In this document: piece after piece, positions 13,879 to 44,055 of the stretch
Numbering within the stretch: position 1 is the first letter of the stretch
Layout: each line of letters begins with the position of its first letter
Assembly: GCF_041886205.1 (NCBI RefSeq)
Contig: NZ_CP169029.1
From: Escherichia coli
GTDB lineage: Bacteria > Pseudomonadota > Gammaproteobacteria > Enterobacterales > Enterobacteriaceae
Length of the DNA: 64,000 bases
Strand: one strand, 5' to 3'
Program-made: the position numbers and the translations under genes
The notes under the pieces: model-generated
Told to the model about the DNA's origin: nothing
The model's database searches: none
What the model saw: only the letters and a program-made list of their open reading frames with translations

Positions 13879-13888
13879 TTATTCATTT

Positions 13889-13916
13889 GCCGGAGTGGGC
13901 GAACCCCCACTCCGGC
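13889..13916. terminator. GC-rich stem-loop between convergent artJ and sulfatase gene (no U-tract on either strand)
   Basis: gccggagtggg / cccactccggc 11-bp perfect stem; located between two stop codons. Confidence 0.4.
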
Positions 13917-13928
13917 AAAATCACCTCT

Positions 13929-15410
13929 CTACACTAACCCCAGGCGCTGAAACTGCTCTGGCGGCGCATCATTGTCTTTCATCAACTGAATCAGCAACGC
14001 GATCATCCGGGCCTCGATCGCATCATCATGAATCGGATGCAGCTGCTGCGGATCGTTTTGCAGATCAAACAGCAAATGACCAAACTGATTCAGCCCCTTA
14101 TATTTCTCCTGTGCCGGGATGCGTAGCACCTTTAACCCTTTGGTGAAACGAAACGGTGGAGCCAGCGATAAAGCCCGCATCTCATCCACCGGATAGCGGC
14201 TGTTCATTTTGCAAGCCATTAAGGTGTAGTTAGCAATATCATCCTCACGCCCCGGCAGCGCGGCACGCATATACACATAACGCCCATCGGTTACGTTGAC
14301 ATGACCACTGAAGACACCAAATATAACCGCACTGCGTACCGGTTCATCGTGGCTGACCGTTTTCGCCAGCGGTTGCCCCTGCACATCGGGCGGCACCGGC
14401 TGCTGAAAAAAGTCATACAACGTAGGTGCCCAGTCGATCATCTGCACCAGCGCCTGACGCCGTTCGCCTTTTACACCGCTGCGCGGATCCCATATAAACA
14501 GCGGGTTATTCGCCACTTCGTTGTAATAAGGCATCTGGTTTTTCGCCCACCAGCCATGCTCACCAAGTAAAAAACCGTGGTCGGTGCCAACAATCAGCAT
14601 GGTGTCTCGCCACAGATCGTGCTCATCCATCAGGTCGAGAATGCGCCCCAGGTTACGATCGCACATCGATACCAGCGAGCGATATCGGCAGCGGATATGC
14701 TCCACGGCCTCGTCGCTTTCCTGAACCCTGCCACGTGGCCAGTCATAATACGGCCCGCTCCAGTCATCCTCATATAACGAAAGGTACTCTTCCGTTGTGT
14801 AAAACGGCTCGTGCGGATCAAACGTTTCGACCTGCAATAACCAGTTATCTTGCGCGTGGTTTTTGTGGATAAATGCACAACCCGCGTCAAAGACTTTGGT
14901 TTGGGGAAAATCCGCTTCCTGCTGAATATATTCCCGGTTGGCCCAGTCATGACGCCACAGGCCAGAAACACCGCCGCCGGTCTGCTTTTGCGGCTCCCGT
15001 AGCACCTCGGGAATAGGCGGTTGCGCAACGCTCGCCTGCCAGTGATCGCCTTCCTGGCCGCGCACAATCTCCCATGAACTGTAGCGATTATGGTAATTTC
15101 CGCCACCATCTTCCCAGTAATGCAAATGATCGCTTATCAGGTGGGTATAGATCCCCGCCTTTGTAAGCAGCTCCGGCATGGAGTCGTCAAACGGTTCTAA
15201 CGGCCCCCACTCCCGGTGCAGAAAATTGCATCGCCCGGTATGCAGCTCCCGTCGGGCGGGCATGCAGGGCATACTCCCGACGTAGCTGTTTTCAAAGGTG
15301 GCGGCATGTGCCGCCAGGCGTTGGAAGTTCTCTGCTTTTGTCAATAAGTCGCCATACGGGGGTAAATATCTTTTGTTCAGGCTATCGAACAGGAGAATAA
15401 TGGCTTTCAT
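13929..15410 (-). CDS. Cys-type (formylglycine) sulfatase family protein, predicted cytoplasmic (no signal peptide)
   Basis: 493-aa ORF; sulfatase signature C-x-P-x-R (SMPCMPARRELHTGR) at residues ~46-60; N-terminal LLFDSL..YG resembles sulfatase metal-binding start; last gene of PTS operon. Confidence 0.8.
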   Translation of the reverse strand: MKAIILLFDSLNKRYLPPYGDLLTKAENFQRLAAHAATFENSYVGSMPCMPARRELHTGRCNFLHREWGPLEPFDDSMPELLTKAGIYTHLISDHLHYWEDGGGNYHNRYSSWEIVRGQEGDHWQASVAQPPIPEVLREPQKQTGGGVSGLWRHDWANREYIQQEADFPQTKVFDAGCAFIHKNHAQDNWLLQVETFDPHEPFYTTEEYLSLYEDDWSGPYYDWPRGRVQESDEAVEHIRCRYRSLVSMCDRNLGRILDLMDEHDLWRDTMLIVGTDHGFLLGEHGWWAKNQMPYYNEVANNPLFIWDPRSGVKGERRQALVQMIDWAPTLYDFFQQPVPPDVQGQPLAKTVSHDEPVRSAVIFGVFSGHVNVTDGRYVYMRAALPGREDDIANYTLMACKMNSRYPVDEMRALSLAPPFRFTKGLKVLRIPAQEKYKGLNQFGHLLFDLQNDPQQLHPIHDDAIEARMIALLIQLMKDNDAPPEQFQRLGLV

Positions 15411-15422
15411 TGCTCATCCCTT

Positions 15423-15743
15423 TTATTTGTTTATCAGATAAGGGAAATGCTGTTGGACGACTTCATAAATCTGTGCACCAATCGTTTCACCATCCATAAT
15501 ATTTTCAATCGGGATCAGATATTGCCCGTGTTTCGGGTCCAGACTGACTACGTCGAGTAATTTTTTGGAAATAGCAAAAATATCTGCCCAGTCGGTAAAT
15601 CCTCCCACCTCACCTGCGGCAGTATGTTCCATTTCAACTTTGAACTCATATTTCGTCAGTGCTTTTTTAACGACCGTTTGTAACATCACGCTACTACCGA
15701 CACCATAACCACAGACAAACAGAATATTAATTGTATCTTTCAT
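15423..15743 (-). CDS. PTS EIIB component, L-ascorbate (UlaB/SgaB) family
   Basis: 106-aa ORF; N-terminal INILFVCGYGVGSS with phospho-accepting Cys in the position typical of UlaB-type EIIB. Confidence 0.8.
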   Translation of the reverse strand: MKDTINILFVCGYGVGSSVMLQTVVKKALTKYEFKVEMEHTAAGEVGGFTDWADIFAISKKLLDVVSLDPKHGQYLIPIENIMDGETIGAQIYEVVQQHFPYLINK

Positions 15744-15764
15744 TTTTACATCCTTAATAGTGAA

Positions 15765-17108
15765 TTATCCCGCGTAAGGACCAAGGTGGAATGTTGCAGC
15801 GATAAATTTCAGAACTTCACAAATAGCAGGCCATACAGTTGCCCAGTCAAATATTCCTGTCCAGCCGACGCCATTTTCAGCAAGCCCGGTTAACGGAATA
15901 GCCCACACCGTACCGAAGGTCTGAATAATACCCAGCAAGAAGGTACAGATAATTACGGAGCGGTATCCGCCCATGCGGTTTGCTAAAACGCCAATCGGGC
16001 CGCCTGAGAAAAATAACGGTACAAAGCCTGGCAATACCATAATGGGGCTGTGGATCAGTAATAAGATACCCATCGAGAAAATGGTGCCAAAAGTACAGAA
16101 GACAAAACCTAACGTTGCGGCTTTGGGTGAAAAAGGCAACAGCGCGGCGACATCGACGGCGGGAATGGCATTAGGAATAAAGCGATCCTGCCAGCCTTTA
16201 AAAGAACCGTTAATTTCACCGACCATCATGCGCACGCCCTGCAACAGAATGACCATGTACATGGAGAACTGTAAGCCCAGGTTGATAATATAGATGTACC
16301 AGGGTTTACCTTTTGCCATCATCTGAACGTTATCGATGCCCGTGGAGAGCAGGAACCCGCCAACAAACAGCGTCATCACAATGGCGATAGCCGTCACGTT
16401 GTGGTTAAAAATCGCCAGCCAGCCGGGGAGTTTCAGGTTTTCAGCATCGTGCTTTTCCGGGTCGCCAAATTTATGCGCGAATTTGGAGAAAAACCACAAA
16501 CCCAACATCTGGTTATGGGCAATGGTAAAACCGGCATCTTTGGTCACTTTGGCAATGGGTTTAGCAATGAGCGTGGTGGAAAAAGCCCAGAATATACCCG
16601 TTAATACCCCGGCGATAATAATCGATGTAGTCCAGCTAAATCCTAACCAAAAAACGATTAACCATAATACTGCCTGAGAATGTGACACACCGGTATTACC
16701 GGTCAGGAATATTCCTTTGGCACCGGTATAGCGACCAAACAGCACCAGTAAGAGGTTGGTAAAAAACGCCAGAACAAATACATAACCTACGTAACCAAAA
16801 TTATCCCCCAACGCAATTTGCGTTGCGGCTTTCATGGCGTAGGAATCCATTAAATAACCGTGAACGCCATAGGCTTTACTTACCGCTTCTGCCACCGGTT
16901 TAAAGGTTGCGGAAAACTGAAAACCACCAAATAGCACCATCATTAATCCCACCATGGCACTGACCATACCGGTGATTATTTTGATGGGCGATTTTTTATC
17001 GAGGGCATAACCAATGCCCACCAGCAAACCAATTAATATTGCGGGTTCGGTTAAAAACGTTTGAATAACATCTATGAATTTGGCAAACATCGTCGGAACG
17101 CCCTCCAT
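15765..17108 (-). CDS. PTS EIIC permease, L-ascorbate (UlaA/SgaT) family
   Basis: 447-aa polytopic membrane ORF immediately upstream of the EIIB gene; length and hydrophobic profile typical of UlaA-like EIIC; start could be ATG at 17108 or ATG 18 nt downstream. Confidence 0.8.
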   Translation of the reverse strand: MEGVPTMFAKFIDVIQTFLTEPAILIGLLVGIGYALDKKSPIKIITGMVSAMVGLMMVLFGGFQFSATFKPVAEAVSKAYGVHGYLMDSYAMKAATQIALGDNFGYVGYVFVLAFFTNLLLVLFGRYTGAKGIFLTGNTGVSHSQAVLWLIVFWLGFSWTTSIIIAGVLTGIFWAFSTTLIAKPIAKVTKDAGFTIAHNQMLGLWFFSKFAHKFGDPEKHDAENLKLPGWLAIFNHNVTAIAIVMTLFVGGFLLSTGIDNVQMMAKGKPWYIYIINLGLQFSMYMVILLQGVRMMVGEINGSFKGWQDRFIPNAIPAVDVAALLPFSPKAATLGFVFCTFGTIFSMGILLLIHSPIMVLPGFVPLFFSGGPIGVLANRMGGYRSVIICTFLLGIIQTFGTVWAIPLTGLAENGVGWTGIFDWATVWPAICEVLKFIAATFHLGPYAG

Positions 17109-17296
17109 AAGCGTACATTTCCGTTGTCAATGCATGAACCTTCTGCTGACGTTAATAATGCTTCAGGTATTTTTTATTTTTCGCTAAGCGATGCCTCTGC
17201 TAGTATTCGGTAAACGCACTGTAGTAATCAAAACAGTTCATTTAAAGATCTTATTTGATTATTTGTGATTTGATTTGCAAAAATAGCGCAATATAT

Positions 17297-17339
17297 AACC
17301 GTGATCGATCGGTTAATATTAATCGATCGATCACGGTTA
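17297..17339. promoter_or_regulatory. 43-bp near-perfect inverted repeat containing four GATC sites; candidate operator upstream of the PTS-sulfatase operon (or rlmC 3' hairpin)
   Basis: aaccgtgatcgatcggttaatattaatcgatcgatcacggtta is self-complementary with a single mismatched pair; two GATCGATC blocks. Confidence 0.5.
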
Positions 17340-17388
17340 TTATTTGGAATGGATGTATGCCGAAGTGATATTGATTTGAGTGATGTAT

Positions 17389-18516
17389 TTACATTTTTAC
17401 CAGCAGCGTCAGCACTTCATAGTGCGCGGTGTGCGGGAACATATCAAAAAGCTGTACCCGTTCAATACGAAACCCAGGCAGTTCGCGGATATCTTTCGCC
17501 ATAGTTTGGGCGTTACAGCTGGAGTAGATAATAAAACGCGGTGCCATCGTTGAGAGATAATCACACAGCGGTTTACCAATGCCGCGGCGCGGCGGGTTAA
17601 CCAGCACCAGCTCCGGCACCTCCCCCTGAGCGGTGGCAAACTGAGTGGAGTCCAGCGCCTGAAATTGCAAACGCGTTAAGCCCAGTTCAGCGGCTGACTG
17701 CTTTGCACAGGCAATGGCCTCTGGCGCAATTTCGATCCCGGTTAACTGCATGTCAGGCGTCGCGCAGTGTAAACCAAAGCCCCCCACACCGCAGAACAGA
17801 TCCCACATATGTTTAACCGGCAGCTGTCGTACCCAGTCGCGCGCGGTGGCGTACAACTGGCTGGCGACAGCCGGATTAGTCTGGAAGAAACTTTGCGGAC
17901 GGATCCACAGCGGTACGTCATTAAAACGCTCCGCCAGCGACTGTTGTTCGGTCAGGTAGATCTCCGTCTCCCCTTCCATAATCGCCATATGTACCGGCTG
18001 AATATTGACGGTAATAACTTTCAGCTGCGGTAGTTGTTCCTGTAACCACGGCAATGCCTTACGCAGTTGTGCCAGTTTGGTTTCAGAACGCAGTACAAAG
18101 CGCAGCATCATGCCGCCATCGCTCTGGCTTTCAGTCAGCAGAATGTATTTCAGTTCGCCACGCTTACGCGCCACGTTGTAGGGCGTTAACCCCGCTCGGG
18201 CGATAAACGGTTTTAGCGCCGCAAAAACGGGCGCAAATGAGGCAGGATAAAGCGGGCAGTCACAAAGGTCTTCTGGTGTGCCGTCGCGATGCAGCATACC
18301 GAGCAGTGGTTTTTCAACGCTACCACTCACCACCATTTTGGCTTTATTACGAAACCCTTGTTCCGGGCCTGACACCGGCGCGCACCATTCCTCAACCGGA
18401 AAGTCGGCGAGCAGATTTTTAAGATCGGCGGTTTTAGCGGAGAGTTGCTCTGGAATCGGCTGCGTTATCCACTGACAGGAACGACAGCGACCCGCGTCGT
18501 AAAGTGCGCACTGCAT
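17389..18516 (-). CDS. rlmC: 23S rRNA (uracil747-C5)-methyltransferase RlmC
   Basis: 375-aa ORF; N-terminal Cys cluster [14 protein letters not shown] (Fe-S) and SAM-MTase C-terminal half; exact K-12 length. Confidence 0.93.
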
Positions 18517-25127: not shown

Positions 25128-25850
25128 TTAGCGCGTCGCCCAACCCTGTTTGTGCAAATAATCCAGAATAAATGGGCGGCTTTCTTTAATGATTGTTCGG
25201 CGGATATGATCGCTCCAGGTATCCCGGCGATTATTGCTGCCACGGGTGAGGTAATATTCCGCCAGTTGCTCGTCATACTGCGCCAGTGCGCCTTTATCCA
25301 GCGGTTGATAGCTGTTTTCATGCACCAAAATGGAGGCCGGTAAACGCGGCTTAAGATCCGGATTATCCGCAGGCCAGCCAAGGCACAGCCCAAACAGCGG
25401 CAGAACATGCTGCGGTAATTTAAGCAGTTTCGTCACCGCTTCAATATTATTGCGCAGGCCGCCGATATATACCCCGCCCAATCCCAGCGATTCCGCTGCG
25501 GTTAATGCATTCTGCGCCATCATTGCCGTATCAACGACACCGAGCAACAGCTGTTCCGCCAGGCCGAGCTGAGCATCCGGACAGATCTGTAAATGGCGGT
25601 TAAAGTCGGCACAGAACACCCAGAACTCCGCCGCTTGCGCTACGTGTTTTTGCCCGCCGGTCAGCGTCACCAGTTCTTCACGTAACGCTTTGTCAGTAAT
25701 GCGAATAATGCTACTGCACTGCAAAAAACTGGAACTGGACGTCGCACGGGCGCTGTTAATAATCGCCTCACGCTGCGCTTCGGAAATGGGTTCATCAGTG
25801 AAATGGCGAATGGAGCGATGGCCACAAATAAGTTCAATGGTTGGCGTCAT
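25128..25850 (-). CDS. nfsA: Oxygen-insensitive NADPH nitroreductase NfsA
   Basis: 240-aa ORF; nitroreductase family N-terminus (RHSIRHFTDEPI). Confidence 0.93.
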   Translation of the reverse strand: MTPTIELICGHRSIRHFTDEPISEAQREAIINSARATSSSSFLQCSSIIRITDKALREELVTLTGGQKHVAQAAEFWVFCADFNRHLQICPDAQLGLAEQLLLGVVDTAMMAQNALTAAESLGLGGVYIGGLRNNIEAVTKLLKLPQHVLPLFGLCLGWPADNPDLKPRLPASILVHENSYQPLDKGALAQYDEQLAEYYLTRGSNNRRDTWSDHIRRTIIKESRPFILDYLHKQGWATR

Positions 25851-26121
25851 TATCTTTTTCTCTTTCTGAACGTGAATATTGCGTTGGGCGGTTCATCAGC
25901 TGTGGGGCAAGACGTTTTGCCACCTGAAGAATAACCACCACCGCAGCGGGAAGCATGAGCAAAACACCGAGAAAAATCATCAGAATCTGCACTTCTGGCC
26001 GAGAAAATGGCTCAGGCAGCGACAGGGTGTCGCTTACCGACAGCAGCGCCACCGCCAGCGACGTCATTCCGATAAATTCCAGTATCAACACGCTTTTAGG
26101 CAATTTACCGATCGCGCGCAT
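25834..26121 (-). CDS. ybjC: Small membrane protein YbjC
   Basis: 95-aa ORF overlapping nfsA start by 17 nt; ybjC-nfsA arrangement as in K-12. Confidence 0.85.
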   Translation of the reverse strand: MRAIGKLPKSVLILEFIGMTSLAVALLSVSDTLSLPEPFSRPEVQILMIFLGVLLMLPAAVVVILQVAKRLAPQLMNRPTQYSRSEREKDNDANH

Positions 26122-27214: not shown

Positions 27215-28900
27215 GTGAATATAAACGTCGCCGAATTGTTAAATGGGAATTACATTTTGTTATTATTTGTGGTCCTCGCGCTTGGGCTATGTCTCGGAAA
27301 GTTACGACTTGGTTCGATCCAACTGGGTAATTCCATTGGCGTTTTAGTCGTATCGCTGTTATTAGGCCAACAACATTTCAGCATTAACACCGACGCGCTT
27401 AATCTTGGCTTTATGCTGTTTATTTTCTGCGTCGGGGTCGAAGCCGGACCGAACTTTTTTTCCATTTTTTTTCGCGATGGGAAAAATTACCTAATGTTAG
27501 CACTGGTGATGGTTGGCAGTGCGCTGGTGATCGCCTTAGGGTTAGGTAAGCTGTTTGGCTGGGATATTGGCCTGACGGCCGGTATGTTAGCCGGCTCTAT
27601 GACGTCGACACCGGTTCTGGTCGGTGCTGGCGATACACTGCGTCATTCCGGCATGGAAAGCAGGCAGCTCTCACTAGCGCTGGATAATCTGAGCCTCGGC
27701 TATGCCTTAACCTATTTAATCGGTCTGGTGAGTTTGATTGTTGGTGCGCGTTACTTGCCGAAATTGCAGCATCAGGACTTACAGACCAGCGCCCAGCAAA
27801 TCGCCCGCGAACGTGGCCTGGACACTGATGCCAACCGTAAGGTTTATTTACCGGTGATCCGCGCCTATCGCGTCGGCCCGGAGCTGGTGGCCTGGACCGA
27901 CGGCAAAAATCTGCGTGAACTGGGTATTTATCGACAAACCGGCTGCTACATTGAACGTATTCGACGTAACGGGATTCTGGCAAATCCAGACGGTGATGCC
28001 GTGCTACAAATGGGCGATGAAATAGCGTTGGTAGGCTATCCCGACGCCCACGCCCGACTCGATCCCAGCTTCCGTAACGGCAAAGAAGTTTTCGATCGTG
28101 ACCTTCTCGATATGCGTATCGTCACTGAAGAAGTGGTCGTTAAAAACCATAACGCCGTTGGCAAACGTCTCGCACAACTGAAGTTGACCGACCACGGTTG
28201 CTTCCTTAATCGCGTTATTCGTAGCCAGATTGAGATGCCGATAGATGACAACGTCGTGCTTAACAAAGGTGACGTTTTACAAGTCAGCGGCGATGCCCGC
28301 CGGGTAAAAACCATCGCCGATCGCATCGGCTTTATCTCGATTCACAGCCAGGTCACTGACTTGCTGGCATTCTGCGCATTCTTTGTAATTGGGCTGATGA
28401 TCGGGATGATCACCTTCCAGTTCAGCACATTCAGTTTCGGCATGGGGAACGCTGCCGGGTTGTTATTCGCCGGAATTATGCTGGGCTTTATGCGTGCTAA
28501 CCACCCGACCTTCGGTTACATTCCGCAGGGTGCATTAAGCATGGTGAAAGAGTTCGGCTTAATGGTGTTTATGGCAGGCGTTGGTCTGAGCGCCGGTAGC
28601 GGTATTAATAACGGCCTGGGCGCGATTGGCGGTCAAATGTTGATTGCCGGATTGATTGTCAGTCTGGTGCCCGTGGTTATCTGTTTCTTGTTCGGTGCTT
28701 ATGTATTGCGAATGAACCGCGCACTGTTGTTCGGCGCAATGATGGGCGCACGCACCTGCGCGCCGGCAATGGAGATCATCAGTGATACAGCTCGCAGTAA
28801 CATCCCGGCGCTGGGCTATGCGGGCACCTACGCAATCGCCAACGTCCTGCTGACGCTGGCAGGGACAATCATCGTCATGGTATGGCCAGGATTAGGATAA
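27215..28900 (+). CDS. ybjL: Putative transport protein YbjL (AAE-family permease with TrkA-C domains)
   Basis: 561-aa ORF with membrane halves separated by a soluble central region; K-12 length. Confidence 0.9.
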
Positions 28901-28939
28901 AACTGAAGTTGCCCTGAAAATGAAATATTTTTGCACAAC

Positions 28940-28976
28940 CGCAGAACTTTTCCGCAGGGCATCAGTCTTAATTAGT
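28940..28976 (+). promoter_or_regulatory. SigmaE-type promoter of rybB
   Basis: GAACTT (-35-like) and TCTTA (-10-like) with spacing appropriate for sigmaE, immediately upstream of the RybB 5' end. Confidence 0.6.
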
Positions 28977-29055
28977 GCCACTGCTTTTCTTTGATGTCCC
29001 CATTTTGTGGAGCCCATCAACCCCGCCATTTCGGTTCAAGGTTGGTGGGTTTTTT
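28977..29055 (+). ncRNA. rybB: RybB small regulatory RNA (sigmaE-dependent, Hfq-binding)
   Basis: Sequence gccactgcttttctttgatgtccccattttgtggagcccatcaacc...ggttggtgggtttttt matches my recollection of RybB; terminal hairpin plus T-run; located between ybjL and rcdA as in K-12. Confidence 0.85.
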
Positions 29056-29074
29056 GTTGCCTGAAATTTATCTA

Positions 29075-29611
29075 CTACCCTGCAACCCTCTCAACCATCC
29101 TCAAAATCTCCTCGCGCGATAGCGGCTTACGGTCGGTGACAAAATGCAGCGTCATCCCCTCAATAAACGCATCAAGCGCGCGGGCGGTTCCGGGTTCAAA
29201 CCATTGTTCGAGCGTTTGCTGACTGCGCTGCATCCAGTTTTGCATTACCGTTTTTAATAGCGGTTTTCGGCTAGCCAGCGCGTAGAGCTGGTACATCAGC
29301 TCCATGTTATCCGGCGTTGCCACCTGTGAGCTGTAGATCATATCGGTGATAGCCTGGCATGCGCCTTGAGCATCACTAACATCGCTAAAAAATGCCTGAT
29401 ATTGCCAGGACATGATCTCAGTAAAACTGCTGAACGCCTCCAGCAACAACTCATCAATTCCTGAAAAATAGTAGGTCATCGATCCCAACGGTACCCCGGC
29501 AAGGGTAGCAATTTTGCGGTGCGTAACAGCATGTATTCCGTAAAGTTTCACCGCCTCCAGCGTGGCCTGGATAATTTTTTCTCGCCGTTGCGGATCGTTA
29601 GCGCGACGCAT
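29075..29611 (-). CDS. rcdA: TetR-family transcriptional regulator RcdA
   Basis: ORF trimmed to ATG at 29611 (178 aa); N-terminal HTH (TetR-like). Confidence 0.9.
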
Positions 29612-41706: not shown

Positions 41707-44055
41707 CTACTCTTTTACTAATTTTCCACTTTTATCCCAGGCGGAGAATGGCATGGGTTTCTGGTACAGATACCCCTGAGCCTGAACACATCCTAATTTA
41801 ATTAATTCGCGCGCAACGTCTTCGCTCTCTACGCCTTCCGCAATCACCGGGATCCGGTTATAGCGTGCCAGATCGAAAATAATGCGCACAATTTTTCCCG
41901 CAGTACCGAAAATATCGCCGGTAAATTGCGAGTCCACCTTTATGCTGTCTGGATTAATTTCATAAAAACGTTTCAGGTTTGACAAACCGGTGCCAAAGTC
42001 ATCAATCGATATCCGTACCCCTTGTTTACGCAGTTGTTCAATATTGAGATAAAAATGTTCATTAATTCGCTCGATCACGGTTTCAGTGATCTCAACACAG
42101 AGGCTGTTCGCCTTCAGGCCATTTTCTTTCATGATGGTGGTAAAACACTCATGAAAGTGCGGTTCGTTTAACTGCCAGGGCGAAACATTAATATGCAGTA
42201 AGAAATCATCCTTCAGCGACGCACGCTGACTAAAATGTCTGAATTCACCCATTGCCGTTTTAATAATCTGATAACCCAGCTCATTGATAAACCCGATATC
42301 TTCAGCAATGGTAATGAACTTCAGCGGTGAAATGATCCCCCGCTCCGCAGAAACCCAACGGCACAACGCCTCCGCGCCCAGAATGGCGCGGGTGTTAATA
42401 TCAACGATCGGTTGATAGACGAGGAATAGTTCGCCAATTTCCATTGCATGGCGAATATTACGCGCAATCCAGATATTCTCTTCTATTTCGTTGAGTTTCG
42501 CGTCATCACAGAAAATAAACTCGGAGAACATATGGTCACGGATACTGGAAATCGCCAGTTTCAGTTTTTCTGCGTAACTCCAGGCGTTTTCCCCCTGCAA
42601 AGGTTCACAAATGGCAGACTTATGGATGCGCAGATTGCGGTAGCCAAAGCTGCTGTCAAAATCGTTTACCATCGCTATTTTACGGGTAAATGTCTGTACA
42701 TTTTCCCGACACAGAAGTAAATAGAGATCGGCATTGAATGTCACGATATCGCAGCATTGCGCATATTTCTCGGCAATTCGCTGACACAATTTCCTGACGA
42801 TTTTATTGCGTTCATCAACACCAAACACCGCTTCCACGGCTTCCAGACCACACAGTTTGATGATCCCCACAGCCAGATACTGATTATTGTTGGACTCAAT
42901 AATCGCCATATTTTTAATAAAACCGCTTTCCTGATCGTAAGAGATCAGTGAGAGCAATTTATTTGACCGTTCAATTTCGGCATCTTTCATTTCCGCGATC
43001 GAATTTTTGATGCTGATAATCTCTTTCGCATCGCCTTCGCGAATTTTCAGAGCCTCGATCTGATCCGTTGAGTCGGGCAAAAACGCCAGCGTATTAACCA
43101 GCTCGGTCATTTCAGAAAATTGCCGACGGAACACACGAGTGGTCATGAAATATACCACCAGCAACACGATAATAATGAACGCAAACGGTAGATAAAAAAG
43201 TTTATCTGATGCGTTCAATAAATTACCGCCAGGATAATAAAAATAGATTTCGAACAATGCATTATTTGGCACTGCTGATGTCTTTGCAATATACTCCGTA
43301 TCGACAGAATCAATAATATTATAATTACCTTCGCTATTATAAATAATCAGTTTTTCACGAGCGAGTTGATTCTTGGCAATGATCTCATGACCTTGTTTCA
43401 AAAATAGAACTTCATCATTAGCGCTGATTTGATCAAGATACTCGTTCAGATACCGCCAGTTTAAATCGACATGAATTTTATCTACCGCTAACAAATCGTG
43501 ATCTTTGCCGTTGATACGTAGCGTAAAAGAGATACATTTTTTACCCGGACGATCAAAGCAATTGTTTGCCGGATTCCAGCTGTTGTTAGAGTCATCTGAA
43601 GCCACCGACCACGGTCGTTTCGATGGGTTAAAATCGGCAAAAATAACCCGCCCTGACTCGTCGACAAGCGGTCCATTTACTTGTTCCTGATGATAAACAA
43701 CGATTTTATCATTCGCCCTCCGCGAAAAGAGATAATATTTATTATCATCAAGTACCAGTCCCACCGAGTCTAAAAATGGCATCATTTCCATTTTCAGAAT
43801 CACGGCGCGTTGAATCTCCTCTGTATTTTTTAATAAATACAGTGAGTCCTTTAATGTCAGGGCCGAACGTTCAATATCTTTAAAGAAATAGCCAACGTTT
43901 TTCTGAATAAGTTCAAAGCGGCTATCGGCACGTTTTACCGCGCGTTCCGATACCAGTTGATAGTTAATGATGAAAAAAAGACCAATAAATGACAGTGCTG
44001 CCAATAAAAATAAAATTATCAGCCTTATCTTTATCTTTTCGTATAAACTCAGCAT
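41707..44055 (-). CDS. pdeI: c-di-GMP phosphodiesterase PdeI (YliE), EAL domain
   Basis: ORF trimmed to ATG at 44055 (782 aa); EAL signature (GAEALCRW) in C-terminal domain. Confidence 0.88.

Follow-up and report, generated by a model that had tools for sequence, protein, structure and literature searches.

The ybjL-rcdA spacer of an Escherichia coli chromosome carries a full-length rybB sRNA gene with a sigma-E-type promoter and an unoccupied P2-like prophage attachment site

RybB of E. coli K-12 and Salmonella is a sigma-E-dependent and Hfq-dependent small RNA with outer-membrane-protein (OMP) targets, according to the studies of Johansen (2006), Papenfort (2006, 2010) and Thompson (2007) as they are cited in PMC4102768 and PMC6694218. 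A sigma-E promoter, dependence on Hfq and repression of abundant envelope proteins are features that it shares with MicA and MicL of E. coli and with MicV and VrrA of Vibrio cholerae (PMC6694218, PMC4102768). These four RNAs are encoded by other genes at other loci and have scaffolds unrelated to that of RybB, whereas a seed core, CRCUGCUUUU, is common to MicV, VrrA and RybB (PMC6694218). The 16-nt RybB seed has been used as a module (PMC9486967). Upstream of such genes, GGAACTT has been described as the -35 motif recognized by sigma-E, and a contribution of UP-elements has been reported for sigma-E promoters, that of rybB among them (PMC3326320). The gene is also known from phage biology: prophages of the Felsduovirus type integrate at rybB (PMC10121019), and P2-type prophages termed "Rybb*" are described for E. 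coli W, B and Crooks (PMC3032704).

We analysed a 64-kb stretch of an E. coli chromosome (hereafter the window), in which positions 28977-29055 of the plus strand read GCCACTGCTTTTCTTTGATGTCCCCATTTTGTGGAGCCCATCAACCCCGCCATTTCGGTTCAAGGTTGGTGGGTTTTTT (79 nt). The first-pass annotation, which was made from the sequence alone, had assigned these positions to a 79-nt RybB sRNA, and both a Rfam/Infernal scan and a comparison to K-12 rybB agreed with it. In a cmscan search of all 4227 Rfam families against the whole window, the RybB family (RF00110) matched at 28980-29058 with 104.1 bits (gathering score 40, E 2.5e-20), and the match spanned model positions 1-79 of 79 with no truncation. The model is slightly offset relative to the RNA; it starts 3 nt inside the 5′ end and terminates 3 nt beyond the 3′ end. 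RybB was the sole family above threshold within the window, and for MicA, MicL, MicV and VrrA no Rfam match was obtained at the rybB locus or elsewhere in the 64 kb.

The curated K-12 MG1655 ncRNA gene rybB (b4417; 887979-888057, minus strand, 79 nt) was compared with the window by aligning the two ybjL-rcdA spacers, 174 bp each. It fell exactly on 28977-29055, with the same ends and 78 of 79 positions identical, so that the coordinates first proposed for the sRNA are those of the curated gene. The two genes also agree in flanking genes, orientation and 5′ seed. The RNA would thus start at the G at 28977 and have its 3′ end in the T-run at 29055. A match of at least 98.7% to the 79-mer is present in 5418 of 5426 complete E. 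coli genomes, with a median copy number of one. The exact 79-mer of the window is a minority allele, found in 738 of 5420 E. coli records (~14%), and nearly all of the others are one base off. Within the window itself, the 16-nt 5′ end of RybB occurs once against 0.05 occurrences expected by chance, even when two mismatches are allowed. Taken with the promoter and terminator described below, these comparisons make it nearly certain that 28977-29055 (+) is chromosomal rybB, an independent 79-nt unit with its own sigma-E-type promoter and terminator, whose regulatory function would be that of K-12 and Salmonella RybB.

The genomic setting is likewise that of K-12. Upstream and on the same strand lies ybjL (27215-28900, plus strand), a 561-aa open reading frame of the aspartate:alanine antiporter family, and downstream lies the convergent rcdA (ybjK; 29075-29611, minus strand), an open reading frame for a TetR-family regulator. 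Both genes are annotated in E. coli strain LHM10-1 as well as in K-12, and the order and relative orientation of ybjL, rybB and rcdA are as in K-12. The location between these two genes, as first proposed, is thus borne out by the annotated genes and by synteny. The ybjL-rcdA spacer measures 174 bp both in the window and in prophage-free K-12. Strain LHM10-1 is 100% identical to the window over 28850-29150, and a 301-bp query around rybB was found in 5422 of 5426 complete E. coli genomes, at 100% identity in several of them. In most RefSeq E. coli records rybB is unannotated: PGAP-annotated records have no feature under it and show only ybjL and rcdA, and the curated MG1655 record marks it. 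The remark in the first-pass annotation that the region would otherwise look like empty intergenic space is an accurate description of the PGAP-annotated records.

Outside this locus the window is near-identical to strain LHM10-1, apart from a few segments. A 3.5-kb accessory segment between artJ and rlmC (13885-17396) contains three minus-strand genes, for a sulfatase (13929-15410), a PTS IIB component (15423-15743) and a PTS IIC component (15765-17108); LHM10-1 lacks it, only 566 of the 5426 complete E. coli genomes have it whole, and the copy in strain wlxctx60 (NZ_AP045833.1) is 100% identical. Between ybjQ and ybjP, a 600-aa open reading frame (6902-8704, minus strand) is annotated elsewhere as a pentapeptide-repeat-containing protein, and the 2.6-kb ybjQ-ybjP segment is considered accessory because it is complete in only ~1122 of the 5426 genomes. 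An ordinary REP/BIME-type repeat, built of inverted GCCGGATGCGGCG... / ...GCCTGATGCGCTACGC units, occupies 57836-57979 between ybiV and ybiT, and a copy with 85% similarity to it sits in the artJ-rlmC spacer of LHM10-1, where the window has the sulfatase/PTS segment. At the nfsA/ybjC junction the window has ~90 bp more than LHM10-1 (25798-25890), and both genes are annotated as partial in that strain. At 43462-43470 the window is without the IS1 that interrupts a phosphodiesterase gene (pdeI in the annotation of strain D2) in LHM10-1.

Upstream of the RNA start we found the elements of a sigma-E-type promoter. The -35 element GAACTTT occupies 28944-28950 (-33 to -27) and the -10 element AGTCTTAA occupies 28964-28971, with GTC at -12 to -10 and A at -7; both are identical to those of K-12. 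Read from the start of the -35 hexamer, the arrangement is GAACTT (28944-28949), a 16-nt spacer, TCTTA (28966-28970) and then 6 nt to the G at 28977. With GTCTTA at -12 to -7, this agrees with the sigma-E consensus of GGAACTT, a spacer of ~16 nt and TCNNA, with the proper spacing to the transcription start. The whole promoter region, from -76 to -1, is identical to that of K-12 except for one A/T difference at -50.

Taken by itself the motif is not significant. A search for GAACTT-N15-17-TCNNA gave one match in the window against 1.3 expected by chance, and the stricter GTCNNA form with one mismatch allowed gave four matches against 2.8 expected. We therefore placed weight on the position of the elements and on their conservation across genera. 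For this, one representative genome per species was scanned for the first 20 nt of RybB, which gave 116 distinct loci from Escherichia, Salmonella, Citrobacter, Enterobacter, Klebsiella, Kluyvera, Serratia, Yersinia, Hafnia, Xenorhabdus, Proteus, Providencia and other genera. As the RNA 5′ end was the only criterion for choosing these loci, conservation of the promoter is independent evidence. Across the 116 loci the -35 element is conserved at 98-100% per column, and G-12, T-11, C-10, A-7 and T-1 are conserved at 100%, with A-13 at 93%. Most upstream columns, including those of the promoter spacer, are near random. A second conserved block was observed further upstream, where columns -54 to -45 are kept as AAAATTTTTT (58-90% per column) between flanking columns that are near random; in the window it corresponds to the A/T tract AAATATTTTT (28923-28932), which is likely an UP-element. 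The upstream conservation is the footprint of a sigma-E promoter together with an UP-like element, with constant spacing to the start of the RNA. Both the placement of the elements and their invariance across genera thus speak for the GAACTT...TCTTA promoter first noticed here. A generic promoter scan limited to sigma-70 promoters did not find the rybB promoter. Sigma-E dependence and induction of rybB by envelope stress would be expected in this strain too, from a promoter that is identical or near-identical to those of K-12 and Salmonella.

At its 3′ end the gene has a Rho-independent terminator (29011-29055), made of a 12-bp stem (29011-29022 paired with 29040-29051), an inner 3-bp helix and a U-tail encoded by six T at 29050-29055. 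MFE and centroid folds of the 79-mer agree on the 12-bp stem and the small inner helix, and the terminator alone folds with -20.5 kcal/mol (z = -4.2). The same 12 stem pairs are carried by the RF00110 consensus. In an alignment of 62 distinct RybB sequences, 97.5% of the stem cells form standard pairs and compensatory double changes occur at six of the 12 stem pairs; the covariation score of the stem was reached by none of 500 column shuffles, and pairing fell to 11-54% in controls with a slid 3′ partner. The intrinsic terminator proposed at the outset thus has the support of covariation in addition to its 12-bp stem and six U. The hairpin was missed by a generic terminator scan because its 17-nt loop is over the 8-nt limit of that scan, and the miss is no evidence against it. 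Terminator and U-tail together are the expected Hfq-binding 3′ module of the RNA.

The sole substitution between K-12 and window RybB lies in this stem, where A is replaced by G at 29045 (RNA position 69) and a U-A pair becomes U-G. The wobble costs 0.6 kcal/mol and leaves the fold unchanged; the pair is kept, and no functional change is expected. A Salmonella diarizonae locus differs from the window RNA only at this same stem position, and RybB of Salmonella enterica and other Enterobacterales has the seed, promoter elements and terminator architecture seen in the window. In Yersinia, Serratia, Xenorhabdus, Proteus and Providencia the stem is altered by compensatory substitutions and the loop is changed, and GAGG stands in place of GUGG at RNA positions 31-34.

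As the same-strand gene ybjL stops 76 nt before rybB, at 28900, and nothing else resembling a terminator lies between it and the rybB hairpin, this hairpin and its U-tail could also be regarded as merely the transcription terminator or 3′ UTR of ybjL, with no independent sRNA gene. We judge this very improbable, because the invariant -35 and -10 elements keep a constant spacing to the start of the RNA in many genera, and because conservation of the first 25 nt of RybB goes far beyond what a 3′ UTR requires. Both Rfam and the curated K-12 annotation, moreover, define a primary 79-nt RNA, and a primary RybB 5′ end is reported for K-12 and Salmonella in the literature as cited above. With no terminator-like site in between, read-through from ybjL most likely stops at the rybB hairpin, and the terminator of an independent rybB may serve the ybjL transcript too; the two roles are compatible.

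That the region encodes a small protein has next to no chance in our view. The six-frame list does contain overlapping open reading frames, of 45 aa on the minus strand (28892-29029) and of 43 aa (TTG start, 28991-29122) and 71 aa (GTG start, 29007-29222) on the plus strand. Against a coding role, the homologous loci differ by indels of 1, 2 and 4 nt (alignment columns 26-27, 49, 56 and 68) that shift the frame, and variation in the stem tracks base-pairing and not codon structure. The plus-strand frames also run into the convergent rcdA, and no CDS is annotated at the site in K-12 or in the RefSeq E. coli records compared.

The target-recognition domain of the RNA is its 16-nt 5′ seed, GCCACUGCUUUUCUUU (28977-28992), which lies at the very 5′ end and is identical to that of K-12. 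It includes the conserved core CACUGCUUUU (28979-28988), an instance of the CRCUGCUUUU core common to sigma-E-dependent sRNAs (PMC6694218). The omp genes of this genome lie outside the window, and pairing was calculated in silico with K-12 leaders. RybB nt 1-9 pair perfectly with the ompC 5′ UTR at -49 to -42 (-17.4 kcal/mol), a value equalled by 10 of 1000 shuffled seeds, and the seed pairs with ompW at +5 to +21 (-15.5 kcal/mol), equalled by 25 of 1000. The calculated duplexes are consistent with repression of omp mRNAs in this strain by seed pairing with the help of Hfq.

In the MFE fold of the 79-mer, seed nt 2-5 are paired with nt 31-34 in a 4-bp helix that would mask the seed. As a conserved structure this helix was rejected; the 62 aligned sequences show no covariation in it, and 19 of them break its A-U pair. 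No conserved intramolecular partner of the seed was found among the 62 RybB sequences. For lack of covariation in the masking helix and because of its broken pair, we took the seed to be single-stranded, in line with the literature.

Because the seed is identical, and the promoter identical or near-identical, to those of the RybB studied in K-12 and Salmonella, the mechanism described there can be carried over to this locus. Under envelope stress, unfolded OMPs would lead to proteolysis of RseA and to the release of sigma-E, and sigma-E RNA polymerase would then transcribe rybB from a promoter that ranks among the strongest in the regulon. Through its terminator and U-tail the RNA would bind Hfq, and through its 5′ seed it would base-pair with many omp mRNAs (ompC, ompW, ompA and others), so that translation would be blocked, RNase E decay promoted, or both. 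Fewer new porins would enter the stressed envelope, which would relieve the folding load and feed back on sigma-E activity.

The 3′ end of rybB coincides with a phage attachment site. Positions 29046-29071, TGGGTTTTTTGTTGCCTGAAATTTAT, correspond to the unoccupied attachment-site core of P2-like (Felsduovirus-type) prophages; the core overlaps the last 10 nt of rybB and is present in a single copy in the window. Strain D2 has a P2-like prophage inserted in its rybB-rcdA spacer; ogr, gpD and tail genes lie at one end of it, and the integrase lies at the other, beside rcdA. Direct repeats of the 26-nt core, TGGGTTTTTTGTTGyCTrAAAyTTAT, bound the prophage and differ from the core of the window at three positions. 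The record of a Klebsiella P2-like phage annotates the att-core sequence as attR. Collinearity with the window is lost 16 nt after rybB in ~1200 of 5422 complete E. coli genomes, and about 22% of complete E. coli genomes carry a prophage between rybB and rcdA.

That the copy in the window is a non-functional rybB remnant or partial duplicate, of the kind left at prophage junctions, is scarcely credible: the 3′ end of the gene is indeed such an attachment site, and lysogens hold a second copy of its last ~10 nt and the downstream core, but rybB in the window is full length, its promoter, seed and terminator are all intact, seed and att core each occur once in the 64 kb, and the spacer has no flanking phage genes and the length found in prophage-free K-12.

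The block that follows the chromosomal rybB, 29056-29071, also showed conservation of its own. The ~13-16 nt past the RybB U-tail (xTTGCCTGAAATT) are conserved across genera and coincide with the att core. K-12 and the window have five differences in the 16 nt just 3′ of rybB, and the form of the window is the one widespread in other genera. As GCCTGAAATTTAT in this position (K-12: ATCTAAAACTTAT) equals the attL core of D2, we considered it as a scar of phage integration; this was rejected, as it is the majority form in other genera, and for the same reason the K-12 downstream sequence is taken as the derived form. We see a small chance that one of three further readings applies. The block may be functional for RybB, through a longer U-rich 3′ end (UUUUUUGUU) required for efficient termination or Hfq loading or through a longer isoform, with phages adopting a host-constrained sequence; conversely, recurrent phage integration and excision may homogenise the site; or, as a lesser variant, the U-G allele may measurably change the termination or stability of RybB.

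The rybB gene described here is confirmed as already known biology, and its value is that of annotation: RybB is a strong and well-studied arm of the sigma-E envelope-stress response, and the relevance of this copy is limited to marking it in this genome. Marking 29046-29071 as an empty P2-like att site explains why about one fifth of E. coli genomes diverge exactly there. With a rybB label on 28977-29055, the region between ybjL and rcdA is taken neither for empty sequence nor, wrongly, for a small open reading frame.
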